From positions 34,084 to 98,083 of the IMG/VR virus record IMGVR_UViG_3300046002_004036: 64,000 nucleotides of DNA; one strand, written 5' to 3'. Positions 53,845-63,495 of the stretch are shown piece by piece; the first letter of the stretch is position 1; each line of letters begins with the position of its first letter. The DNA is from a virus. The position numbers were made by a program, and so were the translations under genes. The notes under the pieces are model-generated. The model was given only the letters and a program-made list of their open reading frames with translations. It was not told the origin of the DNA and did no database searches.

Positions 53845-54036
53845 TTATTCTTCTGTTGGTGTTATATCTGGTGCTATGAAATTAGTGCCGTCATAGGACC
53901 AGCCAATGCCTGCGGGGTTTTCATCTGTATATTCAATAACGTTATAAATATTTATCTCATTAAAAATTTCAACTGAACTTGCAACTATAATGTTTGTTAC
54001 TTTATTGTCTGAATCAATCATTGCATATTTTTTCAT
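53845..54036 (-). CDS. Small partner protein, copy 3
   Basis: YA...V.NIIV...EYTDENPAGIGWSYDGTNF. Confidence 0.75.
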   Translation of the reverse strand: MKKYAMIDSDNKVTNIIVASSVEIFNEINIYNVIEYTDENPAGIGWSYDGTNFIAPDITPTEE

Positions 54037-54045
54037 TTTTAACTC

Positions 54046-54933
54046 CTAGTAATAAAGGTAGAGAATACCTGCGCCACCAGAACCAGCCGTCACTCCACTA
54101 TATCCACCGCCGCCGCCACCGCCACCTAATCCACCTGTTCTTCCACTTGCAATTGCTGCATAACCACCGCCGCCAGCGCCATTGACTCCAGTTGCTCCAG
54201 CAAATTTGCCTGTGCCACCAACGGTTCCAGCATATCCAGCACCACCACCAATCCATTGTCCATTTCCACCATTGCCATGAGAACCACCGCCACCACCAAC
54301 AAGACCAGTTCCTCCAAGACCATTGCTCACGTTGTAAGCATTTCCATTTGAAGCTGTAAGGTATCCATATCCAGCTCCTCCGCCTCCAGTCCAAGCACCG
54401 TTGTTAGGTGCGCCTGATCCAGAGGAAGAACCTTCTGGAATAGAAGTAATATAAAACCCTAAAGAAGCACCTCCTGCTCCACCGCCCTGTCCTCCAGACC
54501 AGTTAGTTCCTTGACCTCCGCCTCCGCCTGCGGCAGTTCCAGTTGAACTTGGAGCACTGCCTGCTGCACCGCTAGCAGTACCAGAATTTATCCCGCCTCG
54601 TCCCCCAGCGCCACCGCCTCTAGCAACAAGACTACTAAAAATGCTATTTCCTCCGTTAGAAGTTGCAGTTCCACCTGCGCCGATGACTACATAGGCAGAA
54701 GGAAATACAAGACCTTGAACTAAAGAAGCACCTCCACCGCCACCTCCTGATGTAACGCCAGCACCTGAATCATAACCTTGGCCACCTCCACCGCCACCGC
54801 CGACAAGAATAGCGTAAACTTGTGTAATATTTGAAGGAATAGTAACTACTCCAGTAGACGTAATTGTTTGTTGAAGAGTTAATTGAGTTGGATTAAATCC
54901 AGAGGATGCTTCAGGGAATACTGATTGACCCAT
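54046..54933 (-). CDS. Gly-rich domain virion protein, copy 3
   Basis: LVGGGGGGG...VIGAGG...GSGGAGILYLYY. Confidence 0.8.
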   Translation of the reverse strand: MGQSVFPEASSGFNPTQLTLQQTITSTGVVTIPSNITQVYAILVGGGGGGGQGYDSGAGVTSGGGGGGASLVQGLVFPSAYVVIGAGGTATSNGGNSIFSSLVARGGGAGGRGGINSGTASGAAGSAPSSTGTAAGGGGGQGTNWSGGQGGGAGGASLGFYITSIPEGSSSGSGAPNNGAWTGGGGAGYGYLTASNGNAYNVSNGLGGTGLVGGGGGSHGNGGNGQWIGGGAGYAGTVGGTGKFAGATGVNGAGGGGYAAIASGRTGGLGGGGGGGGYSGVTAGSGGAGILYLYY

Positions 54934-55118
54934 TATTTATTCTCCTCTATTGTAGGTGGTATAAAATTAGTACCGTCATAGGTGTAACCAATGTATGCTG
55001 GATTTTCGTCTGTATATTCAACACAGGTTTGCCTTGTTGCTTCTTGTGCTATTTCTAAATTATTGCAAACAATAACATTAATTACTGTATCTCCATTAAG
55101 AACTGCAAAGTATGCCAT
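54933..55118 (-). CDS. Small partner protein, copy 2
   Basis: EYTDENPAYIGYTYDGTNFIPPTIEE. Confidence 0.75.
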   Translation of the reverse strand: MAYFAVLNGDTVINVIVCNNLEIAQEATRQTCVEYTDENPAYIGYTYDGTNFIPPTIEENK

Positions 55119-55133
55119 TTATATTTTCCTTTC

Positions 55134-55946
55134 TTACCAGTAAACAAGCACACAGCCGTTACCGCCTGAGCCACCTGTTTCAGAATCAGCACGGACTACA
55201 CCTGCACCACCAGCACCGATTGTTACTGATGTAAAAGTTGCTGGAACCCAACCCATAATAATGGCACCTGCGCCACCACCGTGACCGCCACCGCCGTTGT
55301 TTGGCACTAAAGCAGTACTCCAAGTTCCCGCACCACCACCGCCACCACCAGAACCGCCGTTAATTCCAGTAGATAGTGCAAGTATTCCTGAACCGCCTCT
55401 GCCAGTACTTGTGTAAGTTGTACCATTGAAAAATGCAGCACCGCCAGTGCCTGCTCCAAGGTTTCCAGCGCTGTTATTTCCACCGCTTGTACCTGCGCCT
55501 CCACCTGGACCATATTGACCAGCGCCACCATTTTTGCCTGCAGTGGTAGCATTACCTCCACCGCCACCGCCTCCAGATGTGCCAAATGAAGAACCAGCAA
55601 CATTTGCGCCGCCTCCACCCGCGCCAAATGCATATAAATATTGAGAAGCAGTTGTGCTACTGCCATTATTACCAGAACCTAAAAGACCGCCTCCACCTTG
55701 AGCAAATAAACCAGCAGCGTAAGTCATTCCCCCAAAACTAGTTGGTGTTGTTGAGTTGTAAGTTCCACCACCTTGTCCTCCGCCTACAAGAACAACAAAT
55801 ACATTACTTACAGGAAATGTAATTCCTGTTGTAGTAGATGTATAAGTACGTTGCAAAGTTACGCCAGAAGGCACTTGCGTAGGCAATTGTGCGCCACTGC
55901 TTGCACTTGTTGCACTTGTTGCTTCAGGAAATACTGATTGACCCAT
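55134..55946 (-). CDS. Gly-rich domain virion protein, copy 2
   Basis: MGQSVFPEA start; ends GSGGNGCVLVYW. Confidence 0.8.
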   Translation of the reverse strand: MGQSVFPEATSATSASSGAQLPTQVPSGVTLQRTYTSTTTGITFPVSNVFVVLVGGGQGGGTYNSTTPTSFGGMTYAAGLFAQGGGGLLGSGNNGSSTTASQYLYAFGAGGGGANVAGSSFGTSGGGGGGGNATTAGKNGGAGQYGPGGGAGTSGGNNSAGNLGAGTGGAAFFNGTTYTSTGRGGSGILALSTGINGGSGGGGGGAGTWSTALVPNNGGGGHGGGAGAIIMGWVPATFTSVTIGAGGAGVVRADSETGGSGGNGCVLVYW

Positions 55947-55948
55947 GA

Positions 55949-56128
55949 TTATTTCTCCTCTATTGTAGGTGGTATAAAATTAGTGCCGTCATAAGTGTAG
56001 CCAATACCAGCGGGGTTTTCATCTGTATATTCAACACAGGTTAGTCCAGTTACTTCTTGAGCAATTGTTTGTGTTTCAGCAAGAATGGTATTGATTACTA
56101 TTCCATTTTCAATTACTGCATAATTCAT
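55949..56128 (-). CDS. Small partner protein, copy 1 (59 aa, not in ORF track)
   Basis: Hand translation MNYAVIENGIVINTILAETQTIAQEVTGLTCVEYTDENPAGIGYTYDGTNFIPPTIEEK; AGGAG RBS. Confidence 0.85.
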   Translation of the reverse strand: MNYAVIENGIVINTILAETQTIAQEVTGLTCVEYTDENPAGIGYTYDGTNFIPPTIEEK

Positions 56129-57215: not shown

Positions 57216-57944
57216 TTAAGATACAGAGATATAGACAGATTTAATCATTGCTTCACATGGATTATCTGTTCTTATTTGTGGTATTGCTCCAAAAGATTGT
57301 ATTTTTTGATCCTCAACAAAAACGGTCTGCTCAATAGAAAAATCATAGTCATACTGGTATTTTAAGTTTCCTACATAGGACAATGGAGATATAGAATCAT
57401 TGTCTAAAAATGTTTTAAACCAAACCTCAGTATTTGTTGTATATGTGGTCAAGGATACGTTATAACGAATTGTTACTATTGCTCCAACATTTAAGGTTTT
57501 AAAGTTTAACTTCTGTGTAGATTTGTTCCATAAAGAAACATTGCCTTTAGGTAAATAAGCCTCTTGTGTATTACTTGATGTGCTATTTAGTAAAAGGTTA
57601 ACCCAACCATCTTCACCTTCATTAATTCCAGTTCTTTCTTGTTTAGGATATTTATTTTCATAATATCCCCAACCAATCATCTGTTCAGAAGGAGATGCTA
57701 AACTTTTACCATTAATTCCATTTTTACCATCTTTGCCATCTATACCTGGATCGCCTTTATCGCCTTTTAATCCTTGTATACCCTGTAAACCTTGTGGGCC
57801 TATTTCTCCTTTAGGACCTCGCTCACCTGTGGGCCCAGGTACTGGAAGAAATAAAAATTGACCATCACTGTCTTGAGACTGTTCTACTTTAGTAGCGTAT
57901 GTAGATTTTTTAATTGGCGAGTCCATACTTTTGGATACAGCCAT
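57216..57944 (-). CDS. Collagen-repeat protein
   Basis: G-x-y run [11 protein letters not shown]...GKNGING. Confidence 0.85.
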
Positions 57945-60162: not shown

Positions 60163-60347
60163 GGTTTTAGTATACCGCAAAATCTGAAGCAAACTCGCTT
60201 TGCTCGTTTTCTGAAAAATTATTTAAAATAGGGTTTTGGGGTTTGGGGAAATAGGTTTGACAGAAATCTGAATATTTTTATCAGATGTACGATACATGAT
60301 TTATAATATAAATACTATAAATAATAGTGAGCACACATAGGATCTAC

Positions 60348-60896: not shown

Positions 60897-60932
60897 CCTA
60901 GGTTATTTGCCTACTTAGTAGGGCTCACTAGG
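60897..60932 (-). ncRNA. UGAGC/CRAAUAA structured-RNA module, leader 1 (one copy)
   Basis: CCTAG-TGAGC-CCTAC TAA GTAGG-CAAATAA-C-CTAGG. Confidence 0.55.
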
Positions 60933-60958
60933 ATTTCTTATTTAGTTGTTATAGTAGA

Positions 60959-61024
60959 ATACTACCATAGATACCCTGAAAAGTCAAGGCGACACGCCGT
61001 TGGCGTGGTGTGATTCTAGTCACA
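60959..61024 (-). promoter_or_regulatory. Promoter TTGACT-17-TAGTAT with ACGGCGTGTCG box and CRP-like site
   Basis: -35 at 60982-60987, -10 at 60959-60964, TGTGA-N6-TCACA at 61009-61024. Confidence 0.8.
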
Positions 61025-61111
61025 TACCTTCTTGGATAGTAGGGATATTGCTAGGTCTAGGCTAGCCTTGCGCTGAGCCTCTACCATACTCTTGTATTCT
61101 TCAAGTGTCAT
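61016..61111 (-). CDS. Small protein, 31 aa
   Basis: MTLEEYKSMVEAQRKASLDLAISLLSKKVCD; GAAAGGT RBS. Confidence 0.65.
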   Translation of the reverse strand: MTLEEYKSMVEAQRKASLDLAISLLSKKVCD

Positions 61112-61161
61112 TGTATGACCTTTCTTTATTGATAACCTTTATCAATTTTTCTTATACTGCA

Positions 61162-61227
61162 AGTATAGCATAGAGATTGCTAAAAGTCAAGTCCTGAGAC
61201 GGCGTGTCGTGTGTGATATACACCACA
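61162..61227 (-). promoter_or_regulatory. Promoter TTGACT-17-TATACT with CRP-like site
   Basis: -35 at 61185-61190, -10 at 61162-61167, TGTGA-N6-CCACA at 61212-61227. Confidence 0.8.
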
Positions 61228-61238
61228 TGGCCCGGCAG

Positions 61239-61302
61239 TTATCCACATGATACACATCACACTAACAATTGAGCGTGAGTTATCCACATGATGTACCTCA
61301 CA
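61239..61302 (+). promoter_or_regulatory. Two perfect DnaA boxes, each overlapping a CRP-like site
   Basis: TTATCCACA at 61239 and 61280; CATGA-N6-TCACA at 61246 and 61287. Confidence 0.6.
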
Positions 61303-61341
61303 TTGTAAAATGTCCATATTGACCTACTTACTGGGTAGTAG

Positions 61342-61364
61342 ATGTCAGACCCCCCTGTTATACT
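61342..61364 (+). promoter_or_regulatory. Promoter with ATGTCAG box and extended -10
   Basis: ATGTCAG-10 bp-TATACT-TACAGTATAA; same layout at 62092-62114. Confidence 0.7.
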
Positions 61365-61396
61365 TACAGTATAAGAAAAAGTAAATAAAGAAAAAT

Positions 61397-61470
61397 CTTA
61401 GTTGAGCCTATTGAGCCTAGCAAATAATCCGAAAGGTGAGCCTAGCAAATAAATAGCAAATAATACTAAG
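61397..61470 (+). ncRNA. UGAGC/CRAAUAA structured-RNA module, leader 2 (three nested copies)
   Basis: CTTAGT-TGAGC-CTAT-[motif-T-CC GAAA GG-motif]-ATAG-CAAATAA-T-ACTAAG. Confidence 0.6.
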
Positions 61471-61506
61471 CAAGGAAAAAGAATATCTCTTGAAAGGAGA
61501 ATATAA

Positions 61507-61716
61507 ATGTCAATAGAAATTTTTGAAATGAATGAAAATGGTGCTGGTTGGGTATCATTAGAAAATGCTACATCTTCAACCAAAATTGATTTAGAGTGGG
61601 CAATTGCAAACAATGCAGATGTTCAAATGCAATGTTTCAAATGTCATACACCAATCCCAAAAGGTAATGTATGCATAAATCACAAGAATGTAAAAGGAGG
61701 AATTTACTTTGACTAA
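61507..61716 (+). CDS. Small zinc-binding protein
   Basis: CFKC...CINH; GAAAGGAG RBS. Confidence 0.75.
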   Translation: MSIEIFEMNENGAGWVSLENATSSTKIDLEWAIANNADVQMQCFKCHTPIPKGNVCINHKNVKGGIYFD

Positions 61717-61855
61717 AAAAAATGTAATAATTAGTTTTGTTACTGAAGCAGATACAGATCTGCAAGCAGTATTCAATCTAAATAAAATTTTGAATAAACT
61801 TTCTGATAATGAATTAGAAAAGTTCAATGCGTTTGAAGTTTTAGATGTAGAGTAA
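61709..61855 (+). CDS. Small protein, 48 aa (TTG start)
   Basis: MTKKNVIISFVTEADTDLQAVFNLNK...; AGGAGG RBS. Confidence 0.65.
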   Translation: MTKKNVIISFVTEADTDLQAVFNLNKILNKLSDNELEKFNAFEVLDVE

Positions 61856-61882
61856 TCTCTACACTAAGACCGCCCGGCGCGG

Positions 61883-61948
61883 CGTGATGCATATCACATA
61901 AAATATACGGCGTGTCGTCTTGACTTTTTGATATTTCTATGTTATACT
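61883..61948 (+). promoter_or_regulatory. Promoter TTGACT-17-TATACT with ACGGCGTGTCG box and CRP-like site
   Basis: CGTGA-N6-TCACA at 61883-61898; -35 at 61920-61925; -10 at 61943-61948. Confidence 0.8.
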
Positions 61949-61987
61949 TCTCGTATAAAGAAAATTGAATAGTGACAAAAAGAAGCA

Positions 61988-62045
61988 GGTCATGAGCCTA
62001 GCGAATAAGCCTCTACCAGAGGATGAGCCTAGCAAATAAGTGACC
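61988..62045 (+). ncRNA. UGAGC/CRAAUAA structured-RNA module, leader 3 (two copies)
   Basis: GGTCA-motif-G-CCTCT ACC AGAGG-A-motif-G-TGACC. Confidence 0.6.
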
Positions 62046-62114
62046 AATATCACAAAGAAAGTTTCTCAACACACCCCTAAAAGGGGTCAATATGTCAGTG
62101 GTCTATGTTAGACT
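62039..62114 (+). promoter_or_regulatory. CRP-like site plus ATGTCAG-type promoter
   Basis: AGTGA-N6-TCACA at 62039-62054; ATGTCAG at 62092; TAGACT at 62109. Confidence 0.7.
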
Positions 62115-62145: not shown

Positions 62146-62343
62146 ATGACTCACTATAAAGAAATCCGAAAGGATATAGCCCTAGAGTATGGGCTAGCGA
62201 GTGCAGGATATGCACCTCGTAAATATGCATTGACAGTTCGCCAATGTCAAATACTCAATAATAAATACGGCTATGAAAAAGCCTCAATGATAGTAAAACG
62301 CTATCGCTCAATGTTTCTAACTAAGAAAGTTGGTACTAACTAA
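62146..62343 (+). CDS. Small basic protein
   Basis: GAAAGGAG RBS. Confidence 0.75.
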   Translation: MTHYKEIRKDIALEYGLASAGYAPRKYALTVRQCQILNNKYGYEKASMIVKRYRSMFLTKKVGTN

Positions 62344-63279: not shown

Positions 63280-63495
63280 ATGTCAGCCAATGTCTACAAT
63301 GTCCAATCCCTACTAATAGGAAAACAATATATCTCTCGCACCTTGCGTGGAGAAATTGTATCAGCAGAGGTACACCCTAAAGCCGTATGGTATGAGGGTT
63401 GCGAAACTTATCTCGTAGAGGTTGCACCTAATAGCGGTTACAATAATTTCGGTAGCCGTACTTATCGCACCGTTGCAGTAAAGACAGGTCAATAA
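63280..63495 (+). CDS. Small protein
   Basis: AAGGTG RBS. Confidence 0.75.
   Translation: MSANVYNVQSLLIGKQYISRTLRGEIVSAEVHPKAVWYEGCETYLVEVAPNSGYNNFGSRTYRTVAVKTGQ

Follow-up and report, generated by a model that had tools for sequence, protein, structure and literature searches.

Near the end of the viral record IMGVR_UViG_3300046002_004036 (IMG/VR), a short motif, UGAGC...CRAAUAA, recurs between positions 60,897 and 62,045 of the stretch analysed here, and the locus raises the question of what kind of signal this motif belongs to and what it might do there. The stretch, called the window below, is the final 64 kb (64,000 nucleotides) of the 98,083-bp record, and all positions are those of the window. 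A sequence-only reading, made by a model from the letters and their open reading frames (ORFs), had proposed a self-nesting structured RNA module with six copies in three promoter-proximal leaders. Sequence reading in combination with a regular-expression scan across the whole 98,083-bp genome bears out this count and finds exactly six UGAGC...CRAAUAA cores in a paired context, one at 60903-60927 on the minus strand, three at 61403-61463 on the plus strand, and two at 61993-62039 on the plus strand. The complete 16-mer occurs four times, where 0.09 occurrences are expected. The element is a single rod-like hairpin that carries one asymmetric internal loop one to three times, in either orientation. 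A seventh regular-expression match, at 57272-57333, was set aside as chance; its spacer is 50 nucleotides (nt) long and unpaired.

A rod-like hairpin built from one internal loop

The three hairpins of the window and their parts are as follows.

60897-60932, minus: one-loop hairpin in the leftward leader (sequence reading, regular-expression scan and fold)
60932-60928 / 60901-60897, minus: outer stem of the one-loop hairpin
60927-60923, minus: UGAGC, 5' loop strand of the one-loop hairpin
60922-60910, minus: inner 5-bp hairpin of the one-loop hairpin
60909-60903, minus: CAAAUAA, 3' loop strand of the one-loop hairpin, plus C 60902
61397-61470, plus: three-loop hairpin, whose stems are drawn by the minimum-free-energy fold
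61397-61402 / 61465-61470, plus: outer stem of the three-loop hairpin
61403-61407 / 61457-61464, plus: loop A of the three-loop hairpin
61408-61411 / 61453-61456, plus: stem CUAU/AUAG of the three-loop hairpin
61412-61416 / 61446-61452, plus: loop B of the three-loop hairpin
61417-61420 / 61442-61445, plus: stem CUAG/CUAG of the three-loop hairpin
61421-61428 / 61437-61441, plus: loop C of the three-loop hairpin, reversed
61429-61436, plus: apex CC-GAAA-GG of the three-loop hairpin
61988-62045, plus: two-loop hairpin (fold z = -2.0)
61988-61992 / 62041-62045, plus: stem GGUCA/UGACC of the two-loop hairpin
61993-61997 / 62033-62040, plus: first loop of the two-loop hairpin
61998-62001 / 62029-62032, plus: stem CUAG/CUAG of the two-loop hairpin
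62002-62009 / 62023-62028, plus: reversed loop of the two-loop hairpin
62010-62022, plus: apical hairpin of the two-loop hairpin

All seven stems that had been listed from the letters are present and complementary. The loop consists of 5'-(R)UGAGC-3' opposite 5'-CAAAUAA(R/Y)-3'. The inner side of the loop is a C-G pair, and the outer side is a G.A, A.G or A.A opposition or a single bulged pyrimidine, on both sides of the unit. The loops are spaced by helices of 3-5 bp that are free in sequence. Relatives were collected by an IMG/VR scan with the 16-mer, which gave at least 120 contigs, and the unit, loop and context counts in relatives given here and below are among the matches listed. Two copies of the 16-mer lie 9-18 nt apart in nearly all listed contigs, and the aligned relatives reveal that the flanks pair, that the spacer is always a hairpin and that both 16-mers are invariant. 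Over 222 loops, nine of the 12 loop bases show no change, in agreement with the near-invariance claimed for the core, and variation is confined to three positions (U1 once, A11 to G 34 times, and A13 eight times). Around these fixed loops there are 67 different outer stems and 52 apical hairpins, the latter with varied loops (GAAA, GCAA, ACC, CCAGUA and others).

The two-loop mirror form is the commonest, with 97 unique sequences, and its loops are related by a two-fold axis through the central CUAG/CUAG helix. This helix is CUAG/CUAG in 93 units and CUAC/GUAG in 10 unique units, a mixed pair never occurs, and one unit features the 5-bp helix CUAAU/AUUAG. Since CUAC is always matched by GUAG, the two tetramers pair inside one molecule, and the second loop is thus the same motif seen from the other side. 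The intermolecular dimerisation through CUAG that had been considered is therefore not needed. The three-loop form has 14 unique homologues with covarying stems, the one-loop form is represented by a few cases including 60897-60932, and there are also two cases with two loops in the same orientation and three with two rods in tandem. Leaders homologous to that of 60897-60932 carry the one-loop form in the relatives L020 and L027, and in L057, L068, L007, L078 and L110 the same outer stem encloses three loops. This swap is what the sequence-only reading perceived as self-nesting; the nested pairing exists, but what repeats is the internal loop rather than a 16-nt module that has a slot.

In the nested and hairpin forms the position of the central helix is filled by CUAU...AUAG, CUC...GAG or a 5-bp hairpin, which fixes the register of this helix. 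In a first covariance model (R1), RNAalifold put the central helix in a shifted register, and this model was replaced by a hand-drawn structure (R2) because the nested and hairpin forms support its register. R2 was trained on other contigs only, and without any window sequence it recovers both multi-loop units of the window, the 61988-62045 unit with an E value of 2.6e-16 and the inner unit of 61397-61470 with an E value of 1.1e-11. The E value of 0.18 for the one-loop hairpin at 60897-60932 is weak because R2 describes two loops.

Fold statistics were determined on a 50-sequence alignment with the hand-drawn structure and 500 shuffles. Paired cells amount to 92.9%, compared with 63.3% in the shuffles, and the covariation score is 0.641 versus 0.134 for shuffled alignments, none of the 500 reaching the observed value. 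All three helices covary, both sides change in 11 of 14 pairs, and sliding the partner columns yields a pairing of at most 42.5%. The alignment had been pre-selected on the innermost four outer-stem pairs and two apical pairs, so that pairing was partly a selection criterion, and a second test was therefore done on units picked by loop sequence alone. These loop-selected units feature an outer stem of at least 4 bp in 75 of 85 cases (permuted 3' flanks give a mean of 10.8 and a maximum of 20) and an apical stem of at least 3 bp in 48 of 52 (15.8 when permuted).

The strand is indicated by two lines of evidence. The 130 nt upstream contain a promoter-like match in 127 of 141 contexts, compared with three of 141 in the antisense direction and 6.5% at random positions, so that most homologs, like the window copies as first described, lie on the transcribed strand. 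Additionally, 26 of 35 apical tetraloops read as GNRA on the sense strand, and none do on the opposite strand. The strand assignment follows from these GNRA loops and from promoter orientation; the G.U and A.C counts (6 versus 3) are too few for a strand decision. The spacing of the 16-mers varies while the spacer is always self-complementary, which has no explanation under a duplex-DNA site. The covariation of all three helices, the CUAC/GUAG swap and the restriction of GNRA loops to the sense strand sustain the earlier preference for an RNA fold over a duplex-DNA operator, and the element is almost certainly a structured RNA of the sense strand.

A role at the level of DNA would require either single-stranded DNA hairpins that flank an origin or a promoter cassette that is kept for recombination, as in the PeSL elements of T4-type phages, which consist of a terminator stem-loop followed by an early promoter, are conserved as DNA and, like the cassette here with its 36 unrelated families of small ORFs, stand before many different genes (PMC2839356, PMC4122927). 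The element shares with PeSLs a conserved combination of promoter and hairpin that precedes numerous unrelated small early ORFs where the genome is plastic, and divergence around a DnaA-box region is also expected of lagging-strand signals. However, the PeSL stem-loop is a terminator before the promoter, whereas the hairpin here follows the promoter, has no U-tract, and features RNA-type covariation and invariant loops. The coupling to promoters is one-sided at 16-53 nt and is also seen 1-2.5 kb from the divergence point and in tandem copies, the GNRA loops are confined to one strand, and stems that vary around fixed loops are the opposite of homogenisation by recombination. A DNA-level role is the least probable of the explanations considered in this work.

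Promoters, downstream genes and distribution

The promoters that belong to the three hairpins, and one neighbouring promoter, are as follows.

60987-60959, minus: sigma-70-type promoter TTGACT-17-TAGTAT of the leftward leader
61343-61364, plus: promoter of a second class, TGTCAG-N10-TATACT, of the three-loop leader
61920-61948, plus: promoter TTGACT-17-TATACT (with TG) of the two-loop RNA
62093-62114 (-10 box at 62109-62114), plus: promoter of the TGTCAG class, element-free, of the gene at 62146

With the transcription start taken about 7 nt past the -10 box, the first stems of the hairpins at 60897-60932, 61397-61470 and 61988-62045 lie about 21, 27 and 34 nt after the likely start, and the description of these leaders as promoter-proximal and on the transcribed strand thus stands. 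The promoters at 61920-61948 and 62093-62114 form a tandem arrangement, and there is no ORF between 62045 and the second of them (TGTCAG at 62093), so that the 61988 copy was rightly said to lack an ORF of its own. The same layout of promoter and leader is present in 129 of 143 unit contexts, and about 90% of copies are located 16-53 nt past a sigma-70-type -10 box on the transcribed strand. The median distance from the end of the -10 box to the first loop is 37 nt for the TTGACT class and 30 nt for the TGTCAG class, which recurs in 54 unit contexts, and the hairpin is preceded by a single-stranded 5' leader of 18-30 nt. A conserved A/U-rich initial transcribed sequence follows the leftward promoter at 60987-60959. 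Complete genomes have one to three units each, and loci with units on both strands have them in divergent orientation in 15 of 15 cases, 0.5-2.5 kb apart.

The two promoter classes differ in their elements. Class one has the consensus TTGACT-17-TAnnnT, and class two features no -35 box and a conserved TGTC(A/G)G box located 9-12 nt before the -10 box; this class may depend on an activator. Both have one A/U-rich initial transcribed sequence in common, (U/C)AUAA(C/G)...UAAAUAAG (60959-62114 and units in L005-L124). The leader holds a -10-like TATAAC/G right at the start site, and a single-stranded RAAUAA within it resembles the long strand of the loop. Often (62040-62054 and many loci), the outer stem contributes its 3' strand as the first half-site of a CRP/GlxR-like palindrome of the TGTGA-N6-TCACA type (GTGACC...TCACA), so that the RNA stem overlaps a DNA site of the next promoter.

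In 70 of 137 units the hairpin is followed by an A/C-rich spacer and a ribosome site of the GAAAGGA type, and the start codon lies a median of 39 nt past the last loop. Another 33 of the 137 units, including 61988-62045, are directly followed by a TGTCRG-class promoter, and in these cases only transcripts that start at the upstream promoter contain the RNA. The ORFs that come first after the hairpin represent 36 unrelated families of 36-98 amino acids (aa), and the element is specific to no downstream gene. These results bear on a role as a translational operator or enhancer for the first gene of each early operon. The distance of the last loop from the start codon, the conserved A/C-rich spacer and the GAAAGGA-type ribosome binding site are what such an operator would have, but the units without a gene before the next promoter, the unrelated families downstream and the lack of any pairing seen between the element and the ribosome binding site make translational control very improbable.

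The same RNA is present in at least 120 IMG/VR contigs of related phages of about 100 kb. Complete records that bear the element are 100-110 kb long with direct terminal repeats, and their portals are 62-77% identical to the portal of the window; such portals are encoded in more than 590 IMG/VR contigs. Five further relatives (56-87% complete) gave no unit, and the early region may simply be missing there. The nearest cultured phages are Streptomyces phages of Stanwilliamsviridae, with a portal about 46% identical, and the genome of one of them, Comrade (portal 46% identical), gave no element match (best E value 1.8). Megablast and blastn searches of GenBank phages with the region and the element gave chance matches only. 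A search of 185,579 species genomes found the RNA in four tiny contigs of metagenome-assembled genomes (MAGs) only, and this near-absence indicates that the RNA belongs to the phages and not to the host. Lake-water metatranscriptomes (four runs from one study) contain contigs that are 90-99% identical over the element regions and that leave the stretch between the divergent promoters (~61149-61331) largely uncovered; as contigs, they show neither transcription, strand nor ends. The lake-water source of these runs and the affinity to Streptomyces phages fit freshwater actinobacterial phages, and the element-bearing phages are probably lake phages of actinobacteria.

The possible role at the head of early transcripts

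The loop bases are invariant, the helices are free, copy number and orientation are variable and the default form is two-fold symmetric, and the loops are for these reasons viewed as binding sites on a scaffold. The hairpin is probably a binding platform for a macromolecule. The fixation of the loops across widely diverged phages suggests a very conserved partner, such as a host protein, RNA polymerase or a core phage protein. Because the few copies stand at the heads of divergent early operons, a cis-acting mark is ranked first, and we tentatively favour the element as a cis-acting multivalent binding signal at the head of early transcripts, a mark of the nut/put kind. At the beginning of an early transcript, the structured sense-strand RNA would fold into one rod, each internal loop would be a binding site, and the hairpin would act as a multivalent platform. 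Its conserved partner would most simply be a protein that is dimeric or oligomeric, or else RNA polymerase itself. The nascent RNA would mark the early transcription complex or the transcript in cis, and the marked polymerase or message would then behave differently from unmarked ones. We infer that anything binds, which partner it would be and what the outcome would be from what is established above, namely the fold, the loop invariance, the strand, the promoter-proximal position and the distribution.

The lambda nut sites (boxA/boxB) and the HK022 put sites are cis-acting antitermination signals in nascent early transcripts. In the HK022 put RNA, two stem-loops of defined sequence lie side by side; they bind RNA polymerase and need no protein factor. 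The element resembles nut and put in having few copies, of which one heads each divergent early operon, either close to the promoter or behind a first small gene, in its proposed action as an RNA of the transcribed strand, and in not being specific to the downstream gene. By this analogy, the placement appears nearer to lambda nutL/nutR and HK022 putL/putR than to the intercistronic RNase III sites of T7. No likeness in sequence or structure is apparent, however, and antitermination is a proposal here. Unlike nut, the element has no boxA (GCUCUU[UA]A; 0 of 140 units), has variable apical loops, and is accompanied by no recognised N-like protein. The conserved part is an internal loop that occurs one to three times, whereas boxB is a hairpin loop and put features two bulged stem-loops, an architecture that differs from the one rod with repeated loops found here. 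Terminator-like sites downstream of 125 units (44 on the sense strand, 101 on the antisense strand) have no bearing either way on antitermination. Antitermination specifically is possible but somewhat doubtful.

Several points weigh against the cis-acting mark. Transcription of the element is itself a prediction, and the lake metatranscriptome data consist of contigs. No boxA-like sequence was found within 60 nt of any of 140 units. The early operons are short (0.4-1.1 kb), have strong terminators and are followed by a separate conserved promoter region, and a need for antitermination is not demonstrated. A few copies are intercistronic or follow a gene (L104, L109 and L121; about four are intercistronic), and about a third of copies lie between tandem promoters without a gene of their own. 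RNase III, dsRBD and CAT domains were not recognised in five complete element-bearing genomes, and the early proteins that accompany the element have no RNA-binding Pfam domain, so that no partner is found in domain searches of the five genomes and the neighbouring early proteins.

The positional exceptions and stand-alone copies are explained equally well by a trans-acting decoy or sponge, in which early promoters would make a multivalent RNA in large excess and this RNA would sequester a conserved host protein. That protein might be a ribonuclease, a nuclease of a defence system or a regulator that binds RNA globally, and the position of the element in the transcript would be of little import. 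The hairpin is indeed multivalent with one to three loops, and tandem hairpins occur in L031, L040, L049 and G007. Placement is flexible (leader, intercistronic, post-gene, or stand-alone between tandem promoters), the driving promoters are of consensus strength, and the loops are invariant although portals are only 62-77% identical, which fits a conserved host target. However, a pure decoy does not require that 90% of copies stand at a narrow promoter distance, and there is no candidate target and no similar motif to mimic in cellular genomes (four tiny MAG contigs only). A decoy is thus regarded as unlikely, and it is followed in descending order by processing or stabilisation, translation control, ligand sensing and a DNA-level role.

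For the favoured mark, the geometry of the rod has a solved precedent in the LicT CAT dimer on the ribonucleic antiterminator (RAT) hairpin, a symmetric reader of two internal loops, and the RAT hairpins of LicT, SacY and BglG are likewise short leader hairpins with two asymmetric internal loops a few bp apart (PMC3105407). The RAT loops differ in sequence and overlap an intrinsic terminator, whereas the loops here are identical, number one to three and overlap no terminator. A search with PF03123 (CAT) gave matches in control genomes and none in the five complete genomes. Pfam and PHROGs searches of ten flanking ORFs gave nothing useful, and Pfam searches of 50 other ORFs of the genome gave only glycan, methyltransferase and lysis functions. 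The downstream ORFs and conserved early proteins have no Pfam or PHROG function, and arginine-rich proteins of the N type, which the same early operon would encode as the cognates of a nut site, are short and hard to detect. The commonest co-located early protein family, represented in the window by 63280-63495, has 72 members in 61 of the 120 loci listed. Its proteins are about 65-71 aa long, often occur as two paralogues per locus, and usually have their genes on the strand of the element, some 1 kb downstream of it. The AlphaFold model of 63280-63495 predicts a small SH3-like barrel (predicted local distance difference test, pLDDT, of 82), and its best PDB similarities (E value 0.5, Z 4.5; KOW, Tudor, EF-P domain I and Hfq-like) are too generic for use. 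The SH3-like barrel family is a possible but unproven candidate partner.

The RNase III sites of T7 early RNA define or protect the ends of early mRNAs. The T7 hairpins are comparable to the element in that both belong to phage early RNA, feature two helices around an internal loop, and occur as related copies within a genome. A processing or stability element would make the rod a substrate or block for a ribonuclease (host RNase III, E or J, or an unrecognised phage nuclease) that sets or protects early mRNA ends. The rod has about 25 stacked layers, internal loops and two-fold symmetry, which is the geometry read by the dimeric RNase III; additionally, some copies are intercistronic or 3' of a gene, and in 70 of 137 cases the element lies about 30 nt ahead of ribosome binding sites. 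On the other side, the T7 sites separate most early cistrons and lack an invariant sequence when distant phages are compared, whereas the element is present in one to three copies per genome at operon heads with nine of 12 bases fixed. The single-stranded 5' leader of 18-30 nt does not suit a classical 5'-terminal stabiliser, 12 defined loop bases, nine of them never changing, exceed the usual needs of RNase III recognition, and no phage RNase III or dsRBD was found in the five genomes. This explanation is distinctly unlikely, less so only than those ranked below it.

A ligand sensor, in which a small molecule, for instance a nucleotide second messenger, would be bound by each loop or by the symmetric pair and the RNA would act as a switch or sponge, is suggested by the combination of invariant loop bases and free helices that is typical of an aptamer. 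The pseudo-two-fold pair of loops also recalls riboswitches for symmetric dinucleotides. An expression platform is lacking, however (only 11 of 140 units are followed by a U-tract, and the ribosome binding site showed no alternative pairing), the interchange of one-, two- and three-loop forms in homologous leaders is unusual for an aptamer, and the element is not gene-specific. Ligand sensing is hardly to be expected. Protein binding or a decoy, a put-like element and a ligand sensor had all been named by the sequence-only reading, and this remains the right list of functions, each of them a candidate only.

The UAA/GAN internal-loop motif occurs in rRNA, RNase P and group I/II introns, and its name denotes a shape and not a function. 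Compared by sequence alone, the loop carries the UAA/GAN signature, with the UAA of CAAAUAA opposite the GAG of UGAGC, adjoining the helix and invariant in 222 loops. A kink-turn was rejected since the CAAAUAA strand is without G and the second G.A pair cannot form. Repeats of a ToxI-like type III antitoxin were rejected as well; the two 16-mers are the strands of one hairpin, and the neighbours are 36 small families without a toxin domain. An intrinsic terminator was rejected because a U-rich tract follows only 11 of 140 units.

The view that the element is no named family was also upheld. Rfam 15 gave no match at the gathering score over the whole window and none at E values up to 10 for element slices of 86 and 96 nt, and a 3-kb scan against Rfam 15 gave only chance matches, all outside the element. 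The 16-mer was not found in a full-text search of the literature. The element resembles nut/put in placement, RAT in geometry and PeSL in genomic role and departs from each of them in defining features. It is a leader RNA signal with a new, modular build and a well-supported new family that is missing from RNA databases.

Freshwater actinobacteria are among the most abundant lake bacteria, and to our knowledge almost nothing is known of the control of early expression in their phages. The element provides a testable handle, being a 40-75-nt hairpin with strong covariation and 12 defined loop bases, and its natural one-, two- and three-loop versions are built-in valency controls. A partner, if found, would reveal how these phages mark or protect their first transcripts and would add a compact repeatable unit of RNA-protein or RNA-polymerase recognition to the few known so far, namely boxB, put, RAT, MS2-type hairpins and kink-turns. 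It is conceivable, though rather doubtful, that the element represents a class of phage take-over RNA with a stackable loop unit, either the first processive-antitermination RNA of actinobacterial phages or an RNA that appears seconds after infection, ahead of all phage proteins, and traps either a conserved protein of the host or a nucleotide of immune signalling.

Further observations in the window and its relatives

Several first genes downstream of the element (36-56 aa; L016, L024, L117 and others) encode a CxxCxGxG...CxC pattern that is DnaJ zinc-finger-like. The window features a second leftward promoter, TTGACT-17-TATACT (61190-61162, minus strand), which has the same leader start and no loop RNA. 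Its leader (61113-61162, minus strand) carries instead a simple hairpin, UUGAUAA-AGG-UUAUCAA, before a 31-aa ORF at 61111-61016.

Repeats of the AAAATATTCAGATTT type are located in a conserved region past the early-operon terminator (60195-60300 on the minus strand of the window; L007, L021, L064, L067 and L070), and this is a third type of regulatory region common to the phage group. In the window, the region leads to a -10 box located 6 nt before the ATG of a Cys-rich microprotein, and because of this short distance the transcript is probably leaderless. DnaA boxes are located at 61240-61289 in the window, perfect boxes (TTATCCACA) occur near early promoters in several relatives, and DnaA boxes lie 100-140 nt upstream of units in L065, L100 and L104. 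The stretch at 54001-56000 of the window has a GC content of 47.5%, compared with 31-40% elsewhere, and a strong negative GC skew.

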